Positions 33,541-58,999 of a stretch of 64,000 nucleotides of DNA are shown piece after piece; position 1 is the stretch's first letter; each line of letters starts with the position of its first letter. The position numbers and the translations under genes are program-made. A model generated the notes under the pieces. It was not told the DNA's origin. It saw only the letters and a list, made by a program, of their open reading frames with translations, and did no database searches. The stretch comes from a phage, in sequence record OZ346189.1. One strand, 5' to 3'.

Positions 33541-33567
33541 GCCCTGCCCGAAAGGGTGGGGCTTTTT
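33541..33567 (+). terminator. rho-independent terminator (copy 1 of a repeated hairpin)
   Basis: gccctgcccgaaagggtggggc followed by ttttt; identical hairpin at 44924..44945. Confidence 0.55.
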
Positions 33568-44923: not shown

Positions 44924-44952
44924 GCCCTGCCCGAAAGGGTGGGGCATTTTTG
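44924..44952 (+). terminator. rho-independent terminator (copy 2 of the repeated hairpin)
   Basis: gccctgcccgaaagggtggggc followed by atttttg. Confidence 0.55.
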
Positions 44953-48444: not shown

Positions 48445-48473
48445 TACTTGAAAATCCCTGGCATATCAAGTGT

Positions 48474-48510
48474 AAGGAGGATTTCTAAAATGGATTTCCT
48501 CCTTTTGATA
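48474..48510 (+). terminator. terminator-like hairpin
   Basis: aaggagg / cctcctt inverted repeat followed by ttgatattt. Confidence 0.35.
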
Positions 48511-49047
48511 TTTCACCGGGCCAGATATTTTAAAATTCTTAGAAAATCAGAAAATGGATCGAAAACTAAAATGGATTTTTCAAGACAGGCACGATAAGAT
48601 GTGCTGCTCATTCTATCGTTCGCACCGTACTTTAAGTCACTATTCCAGATTTTTCCGCACATACTCTCACCCTTCTACCAGAACTTTCCCAGCTTACCTC
48701 TGACCTTTTATAACAATAAGTCCATTATTATCAGAAAGTTTCGGCACATCTCTTTCGGTACTCGATCTGTTTTTCATTTCAAAGACCTGATTTTCTGAAA
48801 ATTTTTCTCGATAAATTTCTTAGTACTCGATCTGTTTTTCGTTTTCTGAATCGGATTTTCTGGAAATCGTTCCAGCCCTCGACCTGAAATTTTTGGGGAC
48901 GAAATCGATTTTTCGTTTTCAGAAATGGATTTTTAAAATTTCTATATGGGAATATTTTATGGGATACTGTTTTATAGGAAATTGTTACGGAGGGTAATTA
49001 GCATGCTAATTAAATTTATTAAATGCGAGGAGTTCTCATTTAGAATT

Positions 49048-49066
49048 TTGAATGATAATCATTCTC
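49048..49066. promoter_or_regulatory. Fur-box-like palindrome 1
   Basis: ttgAATGATAATCATTcTC: 12-nt core ATGATAATCATT identical to the Fur consensus GATAATGATAATCATTATC core, about 15/19 overall. Confidence 0.35.
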
Positions 49067-49983: not shown

Positions 49984-50382
49984 ATGAAAACCACTACCTT
50001 TAATTTTGATAATGCGGACTTTTCTTTTTCTGATGTCAAGAACTGCCGCCGGGATCGTGGATTTTACAAGGCTTATAATCTGGTGGGCCTGGACGATGAC
50101 AATAATTTGCACGAAGTAGCTGAGATCCGGTATTATGCCGCCGCCAGCGGGAACACTCAATACTGCGTTTTTTGGATTCACGACAACAAGAACAATAAGT
50201 ACGGTTATACTGGCGGGAAGGCGAGCGGTCACGGTTACGATAAAGCTAATGCAGCACTTGAGAGCGCATTAAATGCTATGGGGATCACTGCCAACGGCTG
50301 GATCTATGAAGAAGAGTTTTTGTCGGCACTTGCTGACCACCTGGGCTATAAAAAGCACATTGTAACATGCGCCCACGAATAA
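49984..50382 (+). CDS. hypothetical protein
   Basis: 132 aa, RBS taagaggat. Confidence 0.5.
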   Translation: MKTTTFNFDNADFSFSDVKNCRRDRGFYKAYNLVGLDDDNNLHEVAEIRYYAAASGNTQYCVFWIHDNKNNKYGYTGGKASGHGYDKANAALESALNAMGITANGWIYEEEFLSALADHLGYKKHIVTCAHE

Positions 50383-50388
50383 AAATTG

Positions 50389-50445
50389 TTGACACGCTGC
50401 AAAATTCAAGTAAACTAGTCACAAAAGGCGGGAATGTTTCCCGCC
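50389..50445 (+). promoter_or_regulatory. sigma70-like promoter plus 5'-terminal stem-loop
   Basis: ttgaca-N16-taaact, then hairpin ggcgggaatgtttcccgcc (50427..50445) at the predicted transcript 5' end. Confidence 0.5.
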
Positions 50446-50464
50446 AACACAAAGGAAAAAGATC

Positions 50465-50869
50465 ATGAATAAGAACGTACGCCGCATCATGAACGAACTG
50501 GCAAACGATGAAAAAATTATTGACATGCATTTGATCAACATTTGCCGCCGTTGTGTAACATATAACAACCGCGCCGCAAAAGCGCGTGAGATGAACGCAA
50601 AAGGCACCTTAAAGCCATTCCAGGTGGTGGTAAAGGCCATTAAAGATGTAGCTAATACGGCAAACCAGGTACAGGGGAACACCAACGAGAGTACCAATAT
50701 TGATCCGGCTTACATCATGAAACGGATCCGGACCTGCAAGAACAAAGAGCAAGTGTATAATGTCATAGACTGGTTGGATTCTATGGGCGATGTGGTGTAC
50801 AATAGATTCTCGGCAGCTATTGAGATCCAGCTTGACAGGTTAGACGGTAAAGTACTTAAAACTTACTAA
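50465..50869 (+). CDS. hypothetical protein
   Basis: 134 aa, RBS aaaggaaaaag. Confidence 0.5.
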   Translation: MNKNVRRIMNELANDEKIIDMHLINICRRCVTYNNRAAKAREMNAKGTLKPFQVVVKAIKDVANTANQVQGNTNESTNIDPAYIMKRIRTCKNKEQVYNVIDWLDSMGDVVYNRFSAAIEIQLDRLDGKVLKTY

Positions 50870-50918
50870 ATTTATTTTTAGATGGCCTTGACTCCAGGGC
50901 CATCAATAAAGTAAATTA
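50870..50918. repeat. conserved intergenic hairpin element, copy 1
   Basis: atttatttttagatggccttgactccagggccatcaataaagtaaatt; copies at 51491 and 55228. Confidence 0.6.
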
Positions 50919-50949
50919 ATCTCAGCTAAGCGAAAAAGGGGGCTTTAAG

Positions 50950-51069
50950 ATGAGCACTACACGCCAATACACAAAGGTAACTATTATCGCCTGCGTTGTC
51001 GGTTACATCCTGGCGCAAATGTTAATGAGTAGCGCTAACAGTTTTGCAAAATTTTTCTTAAATTTTTAA
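50950..51069 (+). CDS. small hydrophobic peptide (39 aa)
   Basis: below track cut-off; RBS aaaaggggg; TIIACVVGYILAQMLM hydrophobic core. Confidence 0.35.
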   Translation: MSTTRQYTKVTIIACVVGYILAQMLMSSANSFAKFFLNF

Positions 51070-51097
51070 TTGACAAGCTAACTTAGATTGATATACT
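51070..51097 (+). promoter_or_regulatory. sigma70-like promoter
   Basis: ttgaca-N16-tatact, then weak hairpin cgggaaaacttccc. Confidence 0.5.
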
Positions 51098-51148
51098 TAA
51101 ACACGTAAACGGGAAAACTTCCCAGAACACACAAAAGGAGAAAACACC

Positions 51149-51490
51149 ATGACTACTATGACCGCCGCAGAAAAAGCTATTCAGATCGCCGCACTGAAAA
51201 AACAGATCGCAGACCTTGAGAACAAGATCGATAACTTTGAAATCGACGAGGACAAGTACGACGAAAACTATGATGAATGGTTAGACGAGATCTACGGCGA
51301 AATTATGATCGGAAACATTTCTTTTCTTCCGTCGCGTATCCTCAAGGAGCTAGATCCTATCACTTACCGCTGCGGATTTAGCGACTACATCGACAGCCTG
51401 GATATTGAGGACGATGAAGAATACCAGGAATTACAGACAGAGTTAGAAGAAGCAAAAGAAGAGCTTGCAGAACTGGAAGAAAACGAGTAA
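51149..51490 (+). CDS. acidic coiled-coil protein
   Basis: 113 aa, very acidic (DEDKYDENYDEW, EDDEEYQELQTELEEAKEELAELEE). Confidence 0.5.
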   Translation: MTTMTAAEKAIQIAALKKQIADLENKIDNFEIDEDKYDENYDEWLDEIYGEIMIGNISFLPSRILKELDPITYRCGFSDYIDSLDIEDDEEYQELQTELEEAKEELAELEENE

Positions 51491-51537
51491 GATTATTTTT
51501 AGATGGCCTTGACTCCAGGGCCATCAATAAAGTAAAC
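51491..51537. repeat. conserved intergenic hairpin element, copy 2
   Basis: gattatttttagatggccttgactccagggccatcaataaagtaaac. Confidence 0.6.
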
Positions 51538-51579
51538 TTTATACTGTTAACACTGAACTAATGCATAGGAGTTAAAACC

Positions 51580-51825
51580 ATGGCAGCACTAATCACCAAA
51601 TATTATGCCCCTACCAACACCAAAAGCGCCCGTATCATGGTAAAAGGCTTCGGACGTAAAAAGGTGTACACCTGGGATTATGCCTTAGACACGGAAGACA
51701 ACTACACCAACGCGATGACCGATTTTATTAATGATCTGAACACGCGGATCTTGACAAATTATAAAATTACCGATATTGCCTATATAGGGGAAGGCGGGAT
51801 CTGTTTTGTCGGTATCGTCAAATAA
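51580..51825 (+). CDS. hypothetical protein
   Basis: 81 aa, RBS taggagtta. Confidence 0.45.
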   Translation: MAALITKYYAPTNTKSARIMVKGFGRKKVYTWDYALDTEDNYTNAMTDFINDLNTRILTNYKITDIAYIGEGGICFVGIVK

Positions 51826-51837
51826 GCTGTTTTTTCG

Positions 51838-51875
51838 GTGGTCCTGGTAGCAGGGCCATCTATAAAGATAGTTTA
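51838..51875. repeat. degenerate copy of the intergenic hairpin element
   Basis: ggtggtcctggtagcagggccatctataaagatagttt shares the 3' half cagggccatc.ataaag. Confidence 0.4.
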
Positions 51876-51899
51876 TCAATACAATGAAAGGAGAAAGTA

Positions 51900-52254
51900 C
51901 ATGATCAGCGGGGCAAGTTTTATTATTGGCGCTATTGCTACGGCTTTAATTGTAAACAAGATCCAATCTAAAAACGAAAAAGATAGCAACGCCCTTACAG
52001 AATACCCGTTTTGGGTATTCAACGACAATGAAGACTATATTATCAAGTACAAGAATGAGAAGGGCGACCAGGTAACACCGCGACCGATCCCGGCTTACAA
52101 GATGCAAGAAACACTATACCGCCTAAAGGCTGGAGGCGCAAAAATCGTAGACTTTTGGGGATACGATCACACAGATCAGGAAGTTATAAAGCGCCGTATC
52201 CGGGCTATTCAGGCCAATATTGAAGTTAGCAAGGGGGGAATATATGAAGATTAA
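51900..52254 (+). CDS. membrane-anchored protein
   Basis: ATG 51900 behind RBS gaaaggagaaag; N-terminal hydrophobic helix ASFIIGAIATALIV. Confidence 0.45.
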
Positions 52255-52441
52255 TTTTGAGAAGATTGTAAAGCGATCTCATGCTTCCGAAGAGCTGCCG
52301 GAACGCCGCCAGCGCAACAATAAACTGAATAAGCCAAAAAGATTTGGGAAGATCTGGCGGAATCATTATGATCGCAAATTACCGGGCCTGCTTTTGGAAC
52401 GTGAACGACAGGCGGAACGATACCGCCACAAAGGCAAATAA
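52244..52441 (+). CDS. small basic protein
   Basis: ATG 52244 behind RBS aagggggga; Arg/Lys-rich. Confidence 0.4.
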   Translation: MKINFEKIVKRSHASEELPERRQRNNKLNKPKRFGKIWRNHYDRKLPGLLLERERQAERYRHKGK

Positions 52442-52622
52442 CAACCAACGCCCCGCCATTGTGCGGGGCTTTTTATTTCTATCCTACGAATAGCGCCCCC
52501 GGTTGGCCCTGTAAGCGCCAAAAAGGCCCCACCTATGCAATCGCCCCCCTTTAACCTGAAAACATCGCTTAGGGCCGTTTTATGGCGTTAAAAATATCAT
52601 TGATAGTGATTTTATTTAAAGC

Positions 52623-52654
52623 TTGACATCTTAAACAGGTTAGCTATACTAACC
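52623..52654 (+). promoter_or_regulatory. sigma70-like promoter with inverted repeat across the -10 box
   Basis: ttgaca-N17-tatact; ggttag/ctaacc flank the -10. Confidence 0.5.
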
Positions 52655-52682
52655 ACATCAAAGAGAGAAAGGAGTAAACGCC

Positions 52683-52943
52683 ATGCGTAAATTAAAAAAT
52701 TTTGATAAAGTTGATGTTGTCCTGAATAATTTTTACTACTGCAACAACAAGGCCATTTGGTGGCGTGATAGTTCCACCGATAAAGTCAAGGCGCGCTTTC
52801 TCCAGGGGCACTGGCAAGGCCGTCCAGTGATTAAAATCATGGGGCAATTGGTAGCGTTTAAAAATTGCCGCCGTGTTGATGACGTTGAGGAGATTTTAAA
52901 CATTTTGCGCCACAATAATTTAAAAAATAGTGTTGACAAGTAA
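52683..52943 (+). CDS. hypothetical protein
   Basis: 86 aa, RBS aaaggagtaaacgcc. Confidence 0.45.
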   Translation: MRKLKNFDKVDVVLNNFYYCNNKAIWWRDSSTDKVKARFLQGHWQGRPVIKIMGQLVAFKNCRRVDDVEEILNILRHNNLKNSVDK

Positions 52944-52989
52944 ATCTCAATAAGTATAATTAAACACACAGGCGGGAAAACTTCCCGCC
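52933..52989 (+). promoter_or_regulatory. sigma70-like promoter plus 5'-terminal stem-loop
   Basis: ttgaca-N16-tataat, then hairpin ggcgggaaaacttcccgcc (52971..52989). Confidence 0.55.
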
Positions 52990-53017
52990 ACTAACAAAGA
53001 AAACAGGAGAAAATATC

Positions 53018-53641
53018 ATGACCACCGTTAACATTACCACAGGTTACAATTTAGCTTTCGACGTGCTGACCGACGAACAAAAAGAAAAAGCCGTTGAAAT
53101 GGTCCGCGAAAGAGAAGAACACAGCGGGGATAACTTTTTTGCAGAAAGTGTAATTGAAGACTATAAAGAATATATCTTTCCAGAGTATGGCCTTGAAGAT
53201 ACCGAAGTACATTGGTCCGGCTTTTGGTGCCAGGGCGACGGCGCATCAATCAGTGCGGAAAACGTGGATTTAGAAAAATTCTTGCGTAAAGTCAAGTCTC
53301 TGACTAAATTCCGCTCAATTCGTCACTTGTTCGGCACAATGCACGATGGCGAGCTATCCGCAAGTGTTGAGCGCGATCCATATAGCCGTTATAGTCACGA
53401 AAACACTGTAAGCGGGTACATCGATACTACATGGCTAGACCTGACCGCCAAACAAGAAAACAAAGTGGAAGACCTGGAAGAACTGATCACCGAGACGGTA
53501 CGGGAGCTATCCCGCAAGGTTTACGTAGACCTGGAGGAGGCCTATCTAGAACAGTTCACCGCAGAAAACCTGATCGGCCTTATCGAGGCCAATGATTGGC
53601 GGTTTGATGTCGATGAATATGGTGAGATGACTTTTTCATAA
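53018..53641 (+). CDS. hypothetical protein
   Basis: 207 aa, RBS acaggagaaaat. Confidence 0.5.
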   Translation: MTTVNITTGYNLAFDVLTDEQKEKAVEMVREREEHSGDNFFAESVIEDYKEYIFPEYGLEDTEVHWSGFWCQGDGASISAENVDLEKFLRKVKSLTKFRSIRHLFGTMHDGELSASVERDPYSRYSHENTVSGYIDTTWLDLTAKQENKVEDLEELITETVRELSRKVYVDLEEAYLEQFTAENLIGLIEANDWRFDVDEYGEMTFS

Positions 53642-53649
53642 ATAAAGTG

Positions 53650-53707
53650 TTGCAATAGCCTAAAAACCTGCTATATTAAAACTCAAGGGGGCAAGACGTT
53701 TGCCCCC
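53650..53707 (+). promoter_or_regulatory. sigma70-like promoter plus 5'-terminal stem-loop
   Basis: ttgcaa-N17-tatatt, then hairpin gggggcaagacgtttgccccc (53687..53707). Confidence 0.5.
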
Positions 53708-53731
53708 ACACAAAACAAAGAGGAAAACATC

Positions 53732-54112
53732 ATGAAAAACACTACTAAAGCTATTGACACTGTTATGTTTAACCTGGTTACATTCCGTGAAGATATGAAA
53801 GATCTTCCACGTGAAACAGTGTGCGATCACATTGAAAACTATCGCAAACTAATCAAAGAGTTGCCTTTAAAACGTGACCAGTATGCGGCTAACGCTATGC
53901 TTAACGCCATGATCAAAAAGATGATTCAGTGTGATTTAACTCTGGCCTATGATTATGCAGGTGGTCGTTTTGCAGTATACAATCAGCCCGTGCCTGGTAT
54001 GAGCACCACCGAAGAATTGCACGCGTTAAATCTGAAACAAGATGTATGGGATAACATGCCCCGCGTGGTGGTGTGGGCAGAAAGCGGAAAGATTTACGGC
54101 GATAATTTTTAA
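53732..54112 (+). CDS. hypothetical protein
   Basis: 126 aa, RBS aagaggaaaac. Confidence 0.5.
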   Translation: MKNTTKAIDTVMFNLVTFREDMKDLPRETVCDHIENYRKLIKELPLKRDQYAANAMLNAMIKKMIQCDLTLAYDYAGGRFAVYNQPVPGMSTTEELHALNLKQDVWDNMPRVVVWAESGKIYGDNF

Positions 54113-54176
54113 TCAGGTAACAGGCGGCATATTTGCCGCCTTATTGTTAAACAGAACTGCAAAAGAGGTACATAGA

Positions 54177-54548
54177 ATGGAATTTATTATTTTGGCTGTA
54201 GTAGTTGCCTTGTTCAACGCCTGGATCGCTGGCAAGATAGGTAGATCCGCTTTTCTATGGTTTGTTATATCTATTTTCCTGGGAGTGGTTGCAACTATTG
54301 TATTGGTTATCCTTGCAATTGTTGACAAGGGCGATAATAGAAAGGGTAAAGTGTTTTCCGACCTGTATGACGCACAAACGTTTGTCAACGCCTATTATAG
54401 TGATCTTCCAGTCTCCCTACGCTGCAGCCTGGCACAACAGGTTTTTGATGAGGCTAAAACCAGAGACCAAGCCCATGAGATATGTTTAACTGAAGCGGAT
54501 CGCCTATTTGAGAGGAATAGAAAATATGTGGACCAGCCGTTTAAATAA
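54177..54548 (+). CDS. two-helix membrane protein
   Basis: ATG 54177 behind RBS aagaggtaca; IILAVVVALFNAWIAG and FLWFVISIFLGVVATIVLVILAIV hydrophobic segments. Confidence 0.45.
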   Translation: MEFIILAVVVALFNAWIAGKIGRSAFLWFVISIFLGVVATIVLVILAIVDKGDNRKGKVFSDLYDAQTFVNAYYSDLPVSLRCSLAQQVFDEAKTRDQAHEICLTEADRLFERNRKYVDQPFK

Positions 54549-54747
54549 CGCCACGTTAATTAATCCCTTTAGTGAAGATTTGAAGCCAGCCGCCTGGCGT
54601 GACGGATTCAATAACGAACGCTTTATTTTCAGGCCTGATCTTGAGGAATTTTATAACAATGGATCGAACAACAGCGGAGATAATTTTTCTTGTGGTGTGC
54701 GTGGTGATAGGACTCCTGGGGGCCATTGTAAACCACGTCACTACTAA
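54526..54747 (+). CDS. hypothetical protein (alternative: 41-aa membrane peptide at 54659..54784 in another frame)
   Basis: ATG 54526 behind RBS gagagga; the overlapping frame encodes a hydrophobic peptide, so assignment is uncertain. Confidence 0.3.
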   Translation: MWTSRLNNATLINPFSEDLKPAAWRDGFNNERFIFRPDLEEFYNNGSNNSGDNFSCGVRGDRTPGGHCKPRHY

Positions 54748-55026
54748 CAGGAGGGAAGGGGGAGACGATGACAACCAAGGATAAGCCATGCGCTGATAAG
54801 GTGCGCCGTGTTATGGTATGGCTTGAGATTATCGCCCTTGAAATATTGTTAGGCGTAGGGATGTACTTTATCGCTGTAAGTAACTAAGAGCGGCCCCCGA
54901 TCATGGGGGCCTATCTTTTTAAAAAATTTTTCTTCCGGGGTGTTGCAATCCGGTCCGGAATGTGGATAATAACAATCAACGGGGAGCTAATCCCCACCAC
55001 CACAAAAACCAGAAAGGAGAAACAAA

Positions 55027-55227
55027 ATGAGCAACAATATCCGCGTTATTAACTTCAAAAAAGAAGAAAAAATTGCCGTGCTGATTGACGGTCAAGAAAT
55101 CTTCAAGGGCGACTATGAAGATCATCAAACGGCGATTAGTATCACTCGCGTGATTGGTTATCATAATTTCTACCCCCAAGGCGCTGAGGCAGCAGTTAAA
55201 CGAATCAAAGAGATTGTAGGCCTGTAA
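55027..55227 (+). CDS. hypothetical protein
   Basis: 66 aa, RBS aaaggagaaac. Confidence 0.45.
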   Translation: MSNNIRVINFKKEEKIAVLIDGQEIFKGDYEDHQTAISITRVIGYHNFYPQGAEAAVKRIKEIVGL

Positions 55228-55277
55228 AATTTATTTTTAGATGGCCTTGACTTCAGGGCCATCGATAAAGTAAATTT
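55228..55277. repeat. conserved intergenic hairpin element, copy 3
   Basis: aatttatttttagatggccttgacttcagggccatcgataaagtaaattt. Confidence 0.6.
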
Positions 55278-55320
55278 AAACCCTGTTAAAATACCACGCA
55301 GTTAACAAGGAGTGATAGAC

Positions 55321-55620
55321 ATGTTTATCCAGGCTAATAATCTTTATTTCTTTGATGGTCAGATCGTAGATGGTGTGGAAGTGGAGATCACCGGGTGCCC
55401 TGGCGGTCAGGCTATGACTTTTCGGAATAATGCCTTTGATGATTCTCATATCGTTATGAGAATGGAAGTTACGAAGCTGGACGACAAGAAAACACTTATT
55501 GACTATTCTGTGAAAGATCATCCAGACTACCGCATGATCCATGGTGATTTGTGCATTGTTGACCGTGACAAGGTGGGCGGCATTGTGATCGCTATTGTGA
55601 ACGATGTTTTCTCAAACTAA
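55321..55620 (+). CDS. hypothetical protein
   Basis: ATG 55321 behind RBS aaggagtga. Confidence 0.45.
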   Translation: MFIQANNLYFFDGQIVDGVEVEITGCPGGQAMTFRNNAFDDSHIVMRMEVTKLDDKKTLIDYSVKDHPDYRMIHGDLCIVDRDKVGGIVIAIVNDVFSN

Positions 55621-55637
55621 TTTCAGCAGGCGATTTT

Positions 55638-55988
55638 ATGAAAGTCAAACTATATTACCTTAATGAGCTTAACCCCCTTGCCCAGGTCCGCGCCCTAGCT
55701 AATACCTTGATTTGTGAGAAATCTGTATATTGTGTTGAGCTTAACGCCATGCGTGAACGTCTCAAAGGTGGTTACTTTGACATCCATGCTGCAATCAACG
55801 GCCTGAATATGGAATTTATACGCTTACGTAACAGCCGCCGGAATCTGGCAAGAATGGAACAAGATCCGGCCCACCTTCGTAAGCTGGTTATTGAAAATCA
55901 TCTGATGTTTAATGCCGAGGGTGATTATTACCATTTTCACCGCAAACGCTGGTACCGTGGCGGCAATACAGGCAAGAATGCAAAATAA
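55638..55988 (+). CDS. hypothetical basic protein
   Basis: 116-aa ORF. Confidence 0.45.
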   Translation: MKVKLYYLNELNPLAQVRALANTLICEKSVYCVELNAMRERLKGGYFDIHAAINGLNMEFIRLRNSRRNLARMEQDPAHLRKLVIENHLMFNAEGDYYHFHRKRWYRGGNTGKNAK

Positions 55989-56019
55989 GGCCCCTAGCAG
56001 GGCCTGCAGCAATATAATC

Positions 56020-56055
56020 ACATAAAGGCCATGCGGTTGCATGGCCTTTATTATT
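56020..56055 (+). terminator. rho-independent terminator
   Basis: aaaggccatgcggttgcatggcctttattatttt. Confidence 0.6.
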
Positions 56056-56190
56056 TTGGCGTTACAACGGCATACGGGGCGCTTAAAAAATTTTTAAAGA
56101 AGTACTTGCATCATTCCCGACAATATGGATAATAAGAGTTGTCGAGGGGGAGGCCCCCAATCGTTGACCAGATAGATAGGAGTTAAAATC

Positions 56191-56475
56191 ATGGCTATTG
56201 TTACCGCTGGCGATGTAGTAGAAATGGAAGCAAAATACTTAAAAGCGGGTATGCACATCCTACGGAATGATCAAGAGTTATTATTAACGATGGTTGACTA
56301 TAATCACGGCCAGGATTATCCAAGCATCGACTACTTTTTTGAGTATGTTGATGAAGAGTTGAAAGAGGATGAGGCCTATTGCGGTGAGTTCTGCAACTTC
56401 TTTTGTCCTGATGAGGTTGTAAAGGTTATTTATCAACCTGGCGTAGCTTTCCCGCTGCACGCTATCAATAAATAA
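56191..56475 (+). CDS. hypothetical acidic protein
   Basis: 94 aa, RBS taggagtta; preceded by hairpin gggggaggccccc. Confidence 0.45.
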   Translation: MAIVTAGDVVEMEAKYLKAGMHILRNDQELLLTMVDYNHGQDYPSIDYFFEYVDEELKEDEAYCGEFCNFFCPDEVVKVIYQPGVAFPLHAINK

Positions 56476-56530
56476 ACCTGGCGGGGCCGAAAAGGCCCCC
56501 AATTATGAAAATAAAGAGAGGCAAATCATC

Positions 56531-56764
56531 ATGATGGAACAAATTAAACGCGCCGAGGCTATTAATGGCAACGTGATCTATTTTGTCAGCAAAAACGAAA
56601 AAGGCGTACCATATGCGGCAGTAATAGTACAACCTGACGGCGATTATTGGTTTACTGTGTACGGCGCTTATTCTTTTGGGCGTCCAGTGCATGATAAAAT
56701 TTTGAAAGTAGCGAACCCTACCGGGAAGAATATCACAGCAGAAAAATTTTTTGAAAATAGTTGA
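56531..56764 (+). CDS. hypothetical protein
   Basis: 77-aa ORF, RBS agagaggcaaatc. Confidence 0.45.
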   Translation: MMEQIKRAEAINGNVIYFVSKNEKGVPYAAVIVQPDGDYWFTVYGAYSFGRPVHDKILKVANPTGKNITAEKFFENS

Positions 56765-56789
56765 CATGACCATATAAGACTGTAATATA
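56761..56789 (+). promoter_or_regulatory. sigma70-like promoter
   Basis: ttgaca-N17-taatat, then weak hairpin gggggcaactaacccc. Confidence 0.5.
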
Positions 56790-56839
56790 TAAATCAAAGG
56801 GGGCAACTAACCCCACCAACTACAAAGAGGATAAAAATC

Positions 56840-57019
56840 ATGGCTATTATTGCAAAGACTGAGATCGTAGGCTTAGATTCTATTCTCCTCGCATATGAGG
56901 AAGCTATAGAAATGTATGTGGTTTCCTATGGTGAGTATATCCGTGAATATAAATCTATTGATCTGGCTTTTGAATGTTATATCCGCCAGGTTAATAAAGC
57001 GTACGATGATTATCGTTAA
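56840..57019 (+). CDS. small protein (59 aa)
   Basis: below track cut-off; RBS aagaggataaaaatc. Confidence 0.4.
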   Translation: MAIIAKTEIVGLDSILLAYEEAIEMYVVSYGEYIREYKSIDLAFECYIRQVNKAYDDYR

Positions 57020-57025
57020 AATAGT

Positions 57026-57082
57026 TTGACAACAGCCATCTTACAAAGCATAATACATAAGGCGGTGGAATGGTCCGCCACC
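57026..57082 (+). promoter_or_regulatory. sigma70-like promoter plus 5'-terminal stem-loop
   Basis: ttgaca-N17-cataat, then hairpin ggcggtggaatggtccgccacc (57061..57082). Confidence 0.5.
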
Positions 57083-57106
57083 TGGAACAAAGAAGAGGTA
57101 AACACC

Positions 57107-57352
57107 ATGAAAAGCAATAAAGGTTATAACGGTTACAAAAACAAAACTCATTGGAATGTAAGCCTTTGGATTAATAACGATGAGTCATTGTACCGGTTGG
57201 CCCAAGGCTTTATTAACGCCAATGCTAATCGTAATGATGCGGCGCGGGATATGATGCTTTTTCTGGAGCTAACCGGACAAGATAAGACCCCGGACGGCTT
57301 CAAGTACAGCACTACGGCGATCCGTGCCGCGATGGTTGGAATGAAACACTAA
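57107..57352 (+). CDS. hypothetical protein
   Basis: ATG 57107 behind RBS gaagaggtaaac (track ORF starts at 57026, upstream of the promoter). Confidence 0.45.
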   Translation: MKSNKGYNGYKNKTHWNVSLWINNDESLYRLAQGFINANANRNDAARDMMLFLELTGQDKTPDGFKYSTTAIRAAMVGMKH

Positions 57353-57429
57353 AAGCACATAGCTGCCTTACCCTGGGGCTGTGGTAGCGGCCCCATGAAT
57401 AAGGTTACTAACAGAAGAGAATAAACACC

Positions 57430-57534
57430 ATGAAACAGAAATTAATCGATGCAGTGATCTTGGTTATTGCCCTGGGTATTGGCCTGATTGCAACCATGTC
57501 TAATATGATCTTGTCTTCCAACGGTATCGGGTGA
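57430..57534 (+). CDS. small hydrophobic peptide (34 aa)
   Basis: below track cut-off; AVILVIALGIGLIATM single helix. Confidence 0.3.
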   Translation: MKQKLIDAVILVIALGIGLIATMSNMILSSNGIG

Positions 57535-57543
57535 GGTTGGCAA

Positions 57544-57759
57544 ATGATCACTAACAAAACAGGCAAAACGGAATTTTTACGCAACTTACAGATCGGCAAG
57601 CCTGAGATCTGGTACTGCACTAAAACACCACGTGACGAAATGAAAGACTTCACCGCCACGCTGCAACGGGTAAAGATATCTATCACGCAGAAAAAGGCCT
57701 TACTAGTGGTGGAAGGGGAGATCCCCCAAACCGTTGTTATAGTTGAGCGTACAGCATAG
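57544..57759 (+). CDS. hypothetical protein
   Basis: 71-aa ORF. Confidence 0.4.
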   Translation: MITNKTGKTEFLRNLQIGKPEIWYCTKTPRDEMKDFTATLQRVKISITQKKALLVVEGEIPQTVVIVERTA

Positions 57760-57850
57760 TTTAATTTATACAGATACCTGAAAATTAACCAACAAAGCAT
57801 AAACAGGCGGTTACCGCCGCCTTAAACGTAGCAGAAAGAGGATAGACACA

Positions 57851-58135
57851 ATGAAAAAGATGATCGCAGTGGTTACCCTGGTTGTTGGACTTAATGCGCC
57901 TGTAATGGCTAAAGAGCTGGCAAAAGAGGTTAATCTAACGGATATTCATGCCGTCAATCAAATCGGGGTTACTTATCGCTTATGCCTTGCCGCTAAAACT
58001 TTTAAGGACGGCACAACAGAGTACTACGGATTCGAGGGTATCCGGTGCGGTGAGCTTGCTCGCGACCTTAAGGAAGATCCAGACCTGGAGGATCTGCCCA
58101 TAACCGTGAACGGAAAAACTTACGTGAACCGTTAA
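57851..58135 (+). CDS. small secreted/periplasmic protein
   Basis: 94 aa with signal-peptide-like N-terminus MKKMIAVVTLVVGLNAPVMA; RBS agaaagaggatag. Confidence 0.45.
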   Translation: MKKMIAVVTLVVGLNAPVMAKELAKEVNLTDIHAVNQIGVTYRLCLAAKTFKDGTTEYYGFEGIRCGELARDLKEDPDLEDLPITVNGKTYVNR

Positions 58136-58138
58136 CCA

Positions 58139-58273
58139 TGAGAAAGATAATTATTACCATGGGGATCGTGGCGGCAATGTTGGCGATCTTTCCCTTTATG
58201 GTTAGGTATGTGCTGATTAATGTTGTCCTGGTAGTCAGCGATCTGGTGTTATATATTAACTCATTGTTTTAGG
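58139..58273 (+). CDS. small hydrophobic peptide (44 aa)
   Basis: below track cut-off; two hydrophobic stretches. Confidence 0.3.
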
Positions 58274-58469
58274 CGCGATAATGACAGCGGAAGAAGTTAA
58301 AAAAAGTACTGGCGGTACTGCGTTATCATAATCATTGCAAGGTGAAGAATGATCCTGATTATCTTGATTCATCCCTTGAAGAGGATACACTACAAGCCAT
58401 AAGCAACATGCAAGAATTGCTTAAGCGTATGACAGAGAAAAACCGACCGGACTACATAGGGGGTAAAAT

Positions 58470-58781
58470 ATGATCGCTATTACGCCAACCGTTTTAGATT
58501 GGTATCGGCAACGCATAGCGCCTCCGCTGGCTATCTTCAAAGATGCGGAAGCAAAACAACGCCGGATCTCAATACATGAGATCATCAACCTTAACGCTGG
58601 AGGCACACCATACCGCCCAGGACCTGGCCGTGAGATGGACAATACATTGGCGATCCTGAAGATACGCCGTAAACGGTCCTCCCTTACGCTGGATTCATTA
58701 CACACAATGCAGTCCCCGTTCCAGGTGACTGGGAAACGGATCGCCAGGTCCTGGACAAAGGCCAATGACCGGACCGTATAA
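58470..58781 (+). CDS. hypothetical protein
   Basis: 103-aa ORF, RBS gggggtaaaat. Confidence 0.45.
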   Translation: MIAITPTVLDWYRQRIAPPLAIFKDAEAKQRRISIHEIINLNAGGTPYRPGPGREMDNTLAILKIRRKRSSLTLDSLHTMQSPFQVTGKRIARSWTKANDRTV

Positions 58782-58999
58782 ATAAAAAGTGTTTTGGTAC
58801 TGATTTTGGGGTTGACTTGTTCGGCCCCTTTTGCTATTCTTATTAAACGGGCGGCACTTGGGAACAGGGGGAGACAATCACCAGGCCTGCCTGTCATATA
58901 AGAACTATAAAAACCGTTGACATCTGCCAGGGGGTGGGGTAACATTTATCTTGAAGGGGCAAAGGTGCCCACACAACAACCAGAAGAGAGGAAAACACT

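Follow-up and report, generated by a model that had tools for sequence, protein, structure and literature searches.

In E. coli, repetitive extragenic palindromic (REP) sequences and bacterial interspersed mosaic elements (BIMEs) form stable hairpins just 3′ of stop codons inside operons, where they shield upstream mRNA against 3′ exonucleases and can influence how the gene before them is translated. The early region of phage T7 contains RNase III sites at which cleavage is demonstrated. Promoter-early stem-loop (PeSL) cassettes, described in the T4-type phages RB49/phi1, T4/PST and KVP40/nt-1 (Arbiol et al. 2010, PMC2839356; Comeau et al. 2014, PMC4122927), combine a promoter with a stem-loop between early genes. 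The stretch of phage DNA analysed here (record OZ346189.1, 64,000 nucleotides, hereafter the window) carries a 51-base element in four copies (c1 to c4) within 4.4 kb of its early region, on the sense strand of the early genes. Judged by analogy, the PeSL is its best conceptual match and the T7 RNase III sites are structurally the closest. Taken as a whole, the element is best explained, with a confidence about evenly divided between acceptance and doubt, as an early-operon hairpin cassette that would serve mRNA 3′-end formation or processing and also as a recombination joint.

The element family is real and far beyond chance. Repeat finding yields a single family, whose four copies of 50 nt (50868-50917, 51489-51538, 51824-51873 and 55227-55276) have identities of 100, 94, 68 and 96% for c1 to c4, respectively. 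The core GATGGCC-N10-GGCCATC occurs exactly three times in the window, plus once in c3 with two mismatches; when up to three mismatches are allowed, it is found six times against 1.65 expected, a count reached by none of 100 shuffles. A covariance model built from the four window copies and searched with filters off recovers these four and no others in the 64 kb of the window (76-84 bits, E 1e-14 to 1e-16), the next plus-strand match scoring 14 bits (E 2.6), and it finds four syntenic sites and nothing else in the complete 138-kb rV5 genome. The first-pass annotation of this DNA, which reported three near-identical copies and one diverged copy at these places, is confirmed by repeat finder, core count and covariance model alike. 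Its statement that the flanking genes are unrelated also holds, as the seven proteins flanking the copies belong to seven separate PHROGs, all of unknown function, and contain no Pfam domain.

The plus-strand RNA of all four copies adopts a common fold, a 21-bp two-tier hairpin. Its lower stem (11 bp, A/U) is formed by the T-run pairing with an A-rich run and contains the upstream stop codon in its base, while its upper stem (10 bp, G/C; GAUGGCCUUG/CAGGGCCAUC) is capped by a tetraloop; the two are separated by a 2x3 internal loop (two nucleotides in the 5′ arm and three in the 3′ arm). The minus-strand RNA folds far worse (-9.2 to -14.5 kcal/mol, z -1.4 to -2.2; plus-strand values in Table 1), because several G-U pairs turn into C-A, and folding with DNA parameters gives -5.3 to -11.6 kcal/mol, with c3 losing the full fold. 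In the plus-strand RNA, c3 retains both stems via compensatory and G-U changes. The inverted repeat tggcc/ggcca of the first-pass annotation is present, but the paired region is far larger, comprising both stems; of the TTGACT hexamer placed in the loop, only ACT (followed by C) lies there, while TTG is paired. That the T-run precedes the stem is correct. The copies do lie next to stop codons but do not simply follow them, as TAA is inside the stem base in all four, the stop codon occupying alignment columns 5-8 in 4/4 copies and in the orthologues.

The hairpin is under strong purifying and compensatory selection. Compensatory double changes are found in 4 of the 21 pairs among the four window copies. 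In a set of 46 copies (35 distinct) from 14 loci, namely the window, ten GenBank phages, two IMG/VR contigs and the phage KKE7M, the bases of the upper stem pair in 100% and those of the lower stem in 94% of cases (96.9% overall), against at most 57.3% when the 3′ partners are slid by 1-3 columns. Cells changed on both sides number 39 versus 13.3 in shuffles, and none of 500 shuffles reaches 39. Clearly independent events are seen at columns 9/57, where G-C, A-U and G-U alternate within c1, c2 and c4, and at columns 10/56, where C-G and U-A alternate among c3 orthologues. In every orthologous set (8-13 genomes), no other stretch of the neighbourhood is as conserved as the element: substitutions are confined to loop positions 3-4, the first 3′ internal-loop base and the covarying lower-stem pairs, and the flanking upstream codons and downstream spacer vary freely. 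The loop occurs as ACUC, ACAC, ACGC, ACUU, GUAG, GCUG or GUUG. As such variants are often common to paralogues of one genome (ACAC to c1 and c2 of slur16 and V18; ACUU to c2 and c4 of isim and rV5), gene conversion between copies is suggested. The element is very probably a cis element acting at the RNA level.

More than 100 rV5-like E. coli phages (Vequintavirus, Vequintavirinae) match positions 50-56 kb of the window at 94-96% identity. The window plus strand is equivalent to the minus strand of the rV5 reference, in which the element region falls into a long early unit with the small open reading frames (ORFs) 179-194. By BLAST, a 64-nt unit containing the element is present in 121 phage records, all but one of them Vequintavirus, with three detectable places in most records, the fourth copy (c3) being missed because it is too diverged. 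A scan of IMG/VR with a 14-base pattern gave about 120 chance matches and one real contig confirmed by the covariance model, while longer patterns in IMG/VR and metagenomes retrieved Vequintavirus contigs only, with the same contexts. Copy number and positions are fixed in the 121 phage records and in all metagenome contigs found; together with the same four sites in rV5, this bears out the conservation in related phages that the first-pass annotation had offered as a check. The 64-nt unit is absent from 5,426 E. coli genomes, which rules out a host-derived REP or miniature inverted-repeat transposable element (MITE); the element further differs from REP/BIME in sequence and size, in being limited to four copies in one phage genus, and in its internal promoter-like motif. 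Literature searches yielded no description of the element, either in the rV5 genome paper with its promoter and terminator tables or in the other papers covered; the rV5 paper lists only sigma70 promoters and terminators. When positions 48-64 kb were compared with Rfam (E up to 1), no match overlapped the elements, and the sole match, elsewhere, was at chance level; a tRNA-like or other known RNA is rejected, as the elements have no Rfam match. The PLSDB record CP057073.1 (137,565 bp), filed as a non-mobilizable E. coli plasmid, contains three copies and is the single plasmid match; it is as large as a Vequintavirus genome and probably represents a phage genome, or else a phage present in the culture.

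Table 1. Positions of the element copies and associated features in the window
Feature	Position	Strand	Description	Covariance model (bits)	RNA fold of plus strand
Copy c1	50868..50918	+	Follows 134-aa gene (stop 50867-50869, in stem base)	83.8	-22.7 kcal/mol, z -6.9
c1, lower stem	50868-50878/50908-50918
c1, internal loop	50879-50880 and 50905-50907
c1, upper stem	50881-50890/50895-50904
c1, loop	50891-50894
Copy c2	51489..51539	+	Directly 3′ of 113-aa gene (stop 51488-51490)	83.5	-21.8 kcal/mol, z -5.4
Copy c3, diverged	51824..51874	+	3′ of 81-aa gene (stop 51823-51825)	76.4	-28.2 kcal/mol, z -6.8 (minus strand just -9.2)
Copy c4	55227..55277	+	3′ of 66-aa gene (stop 55225-55227)	82.4	-24.7 kcal/mol, z -7.1
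Sigma70-like hexamers in c1	50888..50917	+	TTGACT (50888-50893), 18-bp spacer, TAAATT (50912-50917)
Sigma70-like motif in c2	51509-51538	+	-10-like TAAACT
Sigma70-like motif in c4	55247-55276	+
Canonical promoter and GC leader hairpin	50389..50445	+	TTGACA-16-TAAACT, hairpin 50427-50445; drives gene ending in c1
Equivalent promoter/leader-hairpin unit	51070-51123	+	Drives gene ending in c2
Equivalent promoter/leader-hairpin unit	54943-54999	+	Drives gene ending in c4
Further promoter/leader-hairpin units	52933-52989, 53650-53707, 56761-56810, 58917-58965
Intrinsic terminator	52450..52479	+	GC stem and T-run; closes operon holding c2 and c3
Cassette between c1 and c2	50919..51488	+
c1-c2 cassette, 39-aa ORF	50950-51069
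c1-c2 cassette, canonical promoter	51070-51097
c1-c2 cassette, leader hairpin	51111-51123
c1-c2 cassette, 113-aa gene	51149-51490

The genes surrounding the four copies are all on the plus strand and co-directional. The early region contains canonical promoters (TTGACA or TTGCAA, 16 bp, TAxxxT), each with a G/C leader hairpin about 10 nt downstream and a conserved ribosome-binding ACAAAGAGGAAAAC-ATG region. Copies c1, c2 and c4 are each located 3′ of the first gene after such a promoter (50389, 51070 and 54943, respectively), while c3 is 3′ of the second gene in the operon starting at 51070. As the terminator at 52450 closes the operon of c2 and c3, the elements are internal to operons. The promoter/leader-hairpin units represent a second cassette family, more PeSL-like than the element itself, and their leader hairpins have terminator-like scores on the minus strand. 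True terminators with T-runs are found at 52450, 54892 and 56022. The last of these (56022-56051) consists of a 13-bp hairpin, ATAAAGGCCATGC-GGTT-GCATGGCCTTTAT, and a T-run, and its stem has the motif AAAGGCCAT in common with the element.

The element itself is not an intrinsic terminator. Both have a G/C-rich stem-loop at a gene end, but the U-run of the element is 5′ of the stem and the A-rich run 3′, on both strands, so that a U-tract is found on neither strand: AAUAAAG stands directly 3′ of the upper stem and no U-run comes after the full hairpin. A terminator scan passes over these sites, since what comes after the stem is A-rich and not a U-run, in agreement with the first-pass annotation, which held the element not to be a standard terminator.

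Five T7 early RNase III sites (R0.3, R0.5, R1, R1.1 and R1.3) were folded with the same tool, at positions that we presume to be those of the sites. In their folds, an upper stem of 9-10 bp, rich in G/C but including G-U pairs, carries a loop of 4-5 nt and is set off by an internal loop from a short lower stem, which is the plan of the element as well. [quoted passage not shown] The intercistronic element, with 11 + 10 bp and a 2x3 loop, has both the two turns and the internal loop. The second and third pairs from its loop are U-A and U-G in c1, c2 and c4, as in the distal box of T7 R1.1, and U-A and C-G in c3, as in T7 R0.5, the register being assumed in both cases. Element and T7 sites further share their occurrence as near-identical copies between early cistrons of polycistronic host-polymerase transcripts, and promoters interleaved in the same intergenic spaces. 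They differ in that there is no sequence similarity between them, in the lower stem (11 bp in the element versus about 5) and the smaller internal loop of the element, and in that cleavage is predicted for the element. To our knowledge, rV5-like phages have no T7-like kinase that stimulates RNase III.

The element is probably a cis-acting intercistronic cassette of early operons. Its selected core is the stem-loop of the sense transcript, which would most likely define and protect the 3′ end of the upstream cistron. Two routes are conceivable: a single cut by host RNase III on the 3′ side of the internal loop, or a plain barrier to 3′ exonucleases that would also attenuate read-through. In the register of T7 R1.1, the cut is predicted after the invariant A-U of the 3′ internal loop, i.e. 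at 50907/50908, 51528/51529, 51863/51864 and 55266/55267. For c1, c2 and c4, the outcome would be a stable monocistronic mRNA with a hairpin cap at each end, the leader hairpin at the 5′ end and the element at the 3′ end. That the element is an RNase III substrate specifically is a tentative proposal, leaning somewhat toward doubt. The processing site listed by the first-pass annotation is compatible with the strongest evidence, namely a selected sense-RNA structure of T7-type geometry, whereas cleavage itself is a prediction. The rV5-like phages are widely isolated and used in typing and therapy, while their gene expression is almost unstudied. The element supplies four precise landmarks at which early polycistronic transcripts may be cut, stabilised or restarted.

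The PeSL comparison brings in the promoter-like part of the element. Like PeSLs, the element is a repeated intergenic motif among small non-essential early genes (four copies in 4.4 kb among ORFs of unknown function), opens with the stop codon of the gene before it, within A/T-rich sequence, and in c1, c2 and c4 combines sigma70-like -35 and -10 hexamers with a stable stem-loop that may overlap the -35; here the -35-like hexamer is enclosed by the hairpin, and the -10-like hexamer lies in the 3′ arm. In both, stems contain G-T pairs, gene-content differences between close relatives are bounded by the motif, and exchange with other phages is seen. However, there is no sequence homology, the lineage of the element is Vequintavirinae, and its stem is a 21-bp two-tier helix pairing the upstream T-tract with the -10 region. 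Its promoter part is weak (9/12 matches, 18-bp spacer), whereas RB49/phi1 promoters are near-consensus, and promoter and terminator activity as well as mini-circles have been shown experimentally for PeSLs, whereas any such activity of the element is putative.

Within c1, c2 and c4, the motif TTGACT-18-TAAAyT includes the critical second and sixth -10 bases. An A/T tract precedes the hexamers in these three copies and fits AAAWWTWTTTT, which we take to be the core of the UP element. The bases A and C of TTGAC, which lie in the loop, are almost invariant in the same copies, whereas the sixth hexamer base (T/A/G) and the next base (C/T) vary. The stretch ATAAAGTAAACT of the element recurs without change in phi92, as spacer and -10 region of the promoter TTGCAA-16-TAAACT; this canonical promoter, which has a leader hairpin, reads TTGCAA-tactgcaaaaATAAAGTAAACT, where the 12-mer is the 3′ end of the element and has exact window matches in three elements only. 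In KKE7M, TAAATT of the element occupies the -10 position of the resident promoter relative to the leader hairpin. This placement and the 12-mer identity raise the odds of a promoter, and active promoter function of the element is possible, if somewhat doubtful. A/T tract, TTGACT and TAAAyT may, as a weaker part of the proposal, constitute a weak sigma70-type restart promoter for the next gene in three copies, and would together with the hairpin form a promoter/stem-loop cassette like the T4-type PeSLs. A promoter with a structured -35, as suggested by the first-pass annotation, is a possible though weak reading, which gains from the phi92 identity and loses from the 9/12 match, the chance-level motif class and the failure of c3. 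The GenBank entry for phage Gotham lists the element stretch as a promoter called by PhagePromoter; automatic promoter calls at this place should be read with caution, as they rest on a weak motif inside a conserved RNA structure.

The element is almost certainly used as a crossover site in nature. Window 50919-51488 is missing from phages ime, magaca and ECP26 and from IMG/VR contig 2051223002, all of which possess a single hybrid element with a 5′ side of c1 type and a 3′ side of c2 type. The flanks of ime are closest to slur16 (98.5% and 99.7%), those of ECP26 to rV5 (96.1%), and those of contig 2051223002 to isim and V18 (98.1% and 98.8%), while the flanks of cassette-less genomes are only 84-94% identical to one another. 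With a separate cassette-bearing genome nearest to each of these flanks, the data are most simply explained by three or more exchanges inside the element. Since the copies are near-identical and start at a stop codon, such crossovers add or remove whole gene cassettes and leave reading frames intact.

A transfer between subfamilies is found in KKE7M (PQ356295.1, 6582-7055), a phi92-like Justusliebigvirus from a different subfamily than Vequintavirinae, which carries window 51069-51542, i.e. promoter, 113-aa gene and element, at 94.7% identity. As aligned with its insert-less relative muut, the left junction is inside the promoter spacer, and the right junction is at AGTAAAyT, which is common to the element and the resident -10. 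The recombination element among the options of the first-pass annotation is supported as evolutionary fact by the c1xc2 deletions and by this transfer, and would extend the regulatory cassette as recombination joint, so far limited to T4-type phages, to another large group of myoviruses. The locus upstream of the gp235 homologue in KKE7M, muut and phi92 has three -35/spacer arrangements before the same -10 and leader hairpin, with an extra gene in phi92, and is a natural example of promoter-mediated cassette swapping. The laboratory-evolved rV5 derivative rV5_ev146 (LR699804.1) contains two early-region deletions of 0.5 kb (window 50459-50961) and 6.5 kb (52392-58875), showing that about 7 kb of early genes are dispensable in culture. 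The deletion ends meet in overlaps of 15-19 nt, for example ACACAAAGG, which stands in two leader regions; element-mediated deletion is ruled out here, as microhomologies of this length elsewhere were used.

Several points weigh against the combined explanation of the element as a cassette for 3′-end formation, restart and recombination. Recombination could be a passive by-product of any 50-bp repeat, and rV5_ev146 is without c1, c4 and their neighbours, so that those copies are dispensable in culture. With regard to covariation, the number of pairs with a double change is 4 versus 3.9 in shuffles, i.e. not in excess, and as much of the covariation separates c3 from the other three paralogues, few independent events underlie it. 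Termination is not predicted at an element without a U-tract. As for the promoter part, its motif class is found 25 times versus 14.4 expected, which is at chance level and implies that more than half are chance matches, its spacer is 18 bp versus 16 bp in the canonical promoters of the phage, and c3 fails the promoter criteria, as CTGGTA replaces the -35 while the -10-like GATAGT (or GATAAT) stays. The genome has four copies of the element compared with about 50 PeSLs per T4-type genome, and literature searches found no transcriptome of any rV5-like phage.

These points bear unevenly on the rival explanations. It is rather unlikely that the element is an RNA hairpin only, serving as an RNase III signal or 3′-end stabiliser, with hexamers that are incidental or a promoter relic and start no transcription. 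Such a hairpin agrees with c3, which keeps the whole structure with 3/6 of the -35 hexamer, with the variable base of TAAATT/TAAACT, which covaries with its partner as predicted by pairing and not by -10 function, with the chance-level 9/12 match and 18-bp spacer, and with the lack of a leader hairpin after the window elements, whereas each canonical promoter nearby has one. It leaves aside, however, the near-invariance of the loop A and C of TTGAC among varying neighbours, which is the pattern of a -35 hexamer, the upstream A/T tract with its presumed UP-element match, the 12-nt identity with the -10 region of a bona fide phi92 promoter, and the distance of 33-45 nt from TAAAyT to the next start codon, which suits a promoter. 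A binding site for a phage or host RNA-binding protein, acting as translational operator, nut/put-like antitermination signal or decay regulator and coordinating several early cistrons, is improbable: no candidate protein is identified, the loop, which is the usual recognition surface, is the most variable part with seven variants, and a position 30-45 nt upstream of the next ribosome-binding site is too far for a simple occlusion operator, even though bases beyond pairing needs are invariant (A45-U46 of the internal loop and U18), the whole upper-stem sequence is invariant within each paralogue, and four dispersed copies in one temporal gene class would suit a regulon. Distinctly improbable, too, is a dedicated regulatory RNA signal of the phage that a factor encoded by the phage itself would read, as opposed to a generic host-enzyme substrate; it could be a temporal switch that frees or destroys a set of early mRNAs, or an abundant RNA decoy against host RNA-targeting defence, for which the pseudo-ToxI RNA of the rV5-like phage phiTE is a precedent (PMC3475682).

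An element acting at the DNA level, either as a promoter with a cruciform-gated -35 or as a palindromic operator for a dimeric DNA-binding protein, is very improbable. The perfect 7-bp inverted repeat GATGGCC/GGCCATC around the -35-like hexamer in three copies and the single PhagePromoter call would fit it, but two-fold DNA symmetry is not kept: the arms of c3 match by G-U wobble only, which means C-A mismatches on the other strand, and the A/U lower stem shows compensatory AU/UA and UA/CG swaps that are unexpected for an operator. DNA operator and cruciform are rejected on these features together with the weak minus-strand and DNA folds and the lost full fold of c3, and the operator proposed by the first-pass annotation is not upheld. 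N4-type hairpin promoters require a virion RNA polymerase, a 5-7 bp stem and a 3-nt loop, and an assignment to this class is rejected on these requirements. That the element is a selfish small mobile element of MITE, REP or homing type, spreading within or between genomes, is hardly credible; near-identical copies adjoining unrelated genes and one inter-subfamily transfer might be taken for its traces, yet number and positions are fixed, E. coli genomes have no copies, PHROG and Pfam annotation of the seven flanking proteins reveals no transposase or homing nuclease, and the KKE7M transfer comprises a whole promoter-gene-hairpin module moved via promoter homologies at both junctions. The metagenome and IMG/VR contigs contain no other contexts than the same four, hence the element is a crossover site and not a spreading mobile element, contrary to the mobile element considered by the first-pass annotation.

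Among the genes adjoining the copies, the 134-aa gene is confined to the genus, while the 81-aa gene is scattered among unrelated phages, where the element is absent at BLAST level; a search for deeper relatives via the flanking proteins yielded no older orthologous hairpins. With window 50000-56000 as query, 17 GenBank records labelled as Campylobacter phage (MG0656xx, host C. jejuni) share 94-95% identity with E. coli rV5-like phages over the whole 6 kb, and further MG0656xx records match phi92-like phages; the host labels of these records look doubtful. Elsewhere in the window, two terminator-like hairpins located 11 kb apart (33541-33567 and 44924-44950) are 96% identical and consist of GCCCTGCCCGAAAGGGTGGGGC and a T-run. 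The region 48450-49050 is A/T-rich and non-coding over about 600 bp, contains scattered repeats of 47-50 nt at spacings of 65 and 74 as well as several AAAATGGATTT motifs, and could be an origin, iteron-like or regulatory region.

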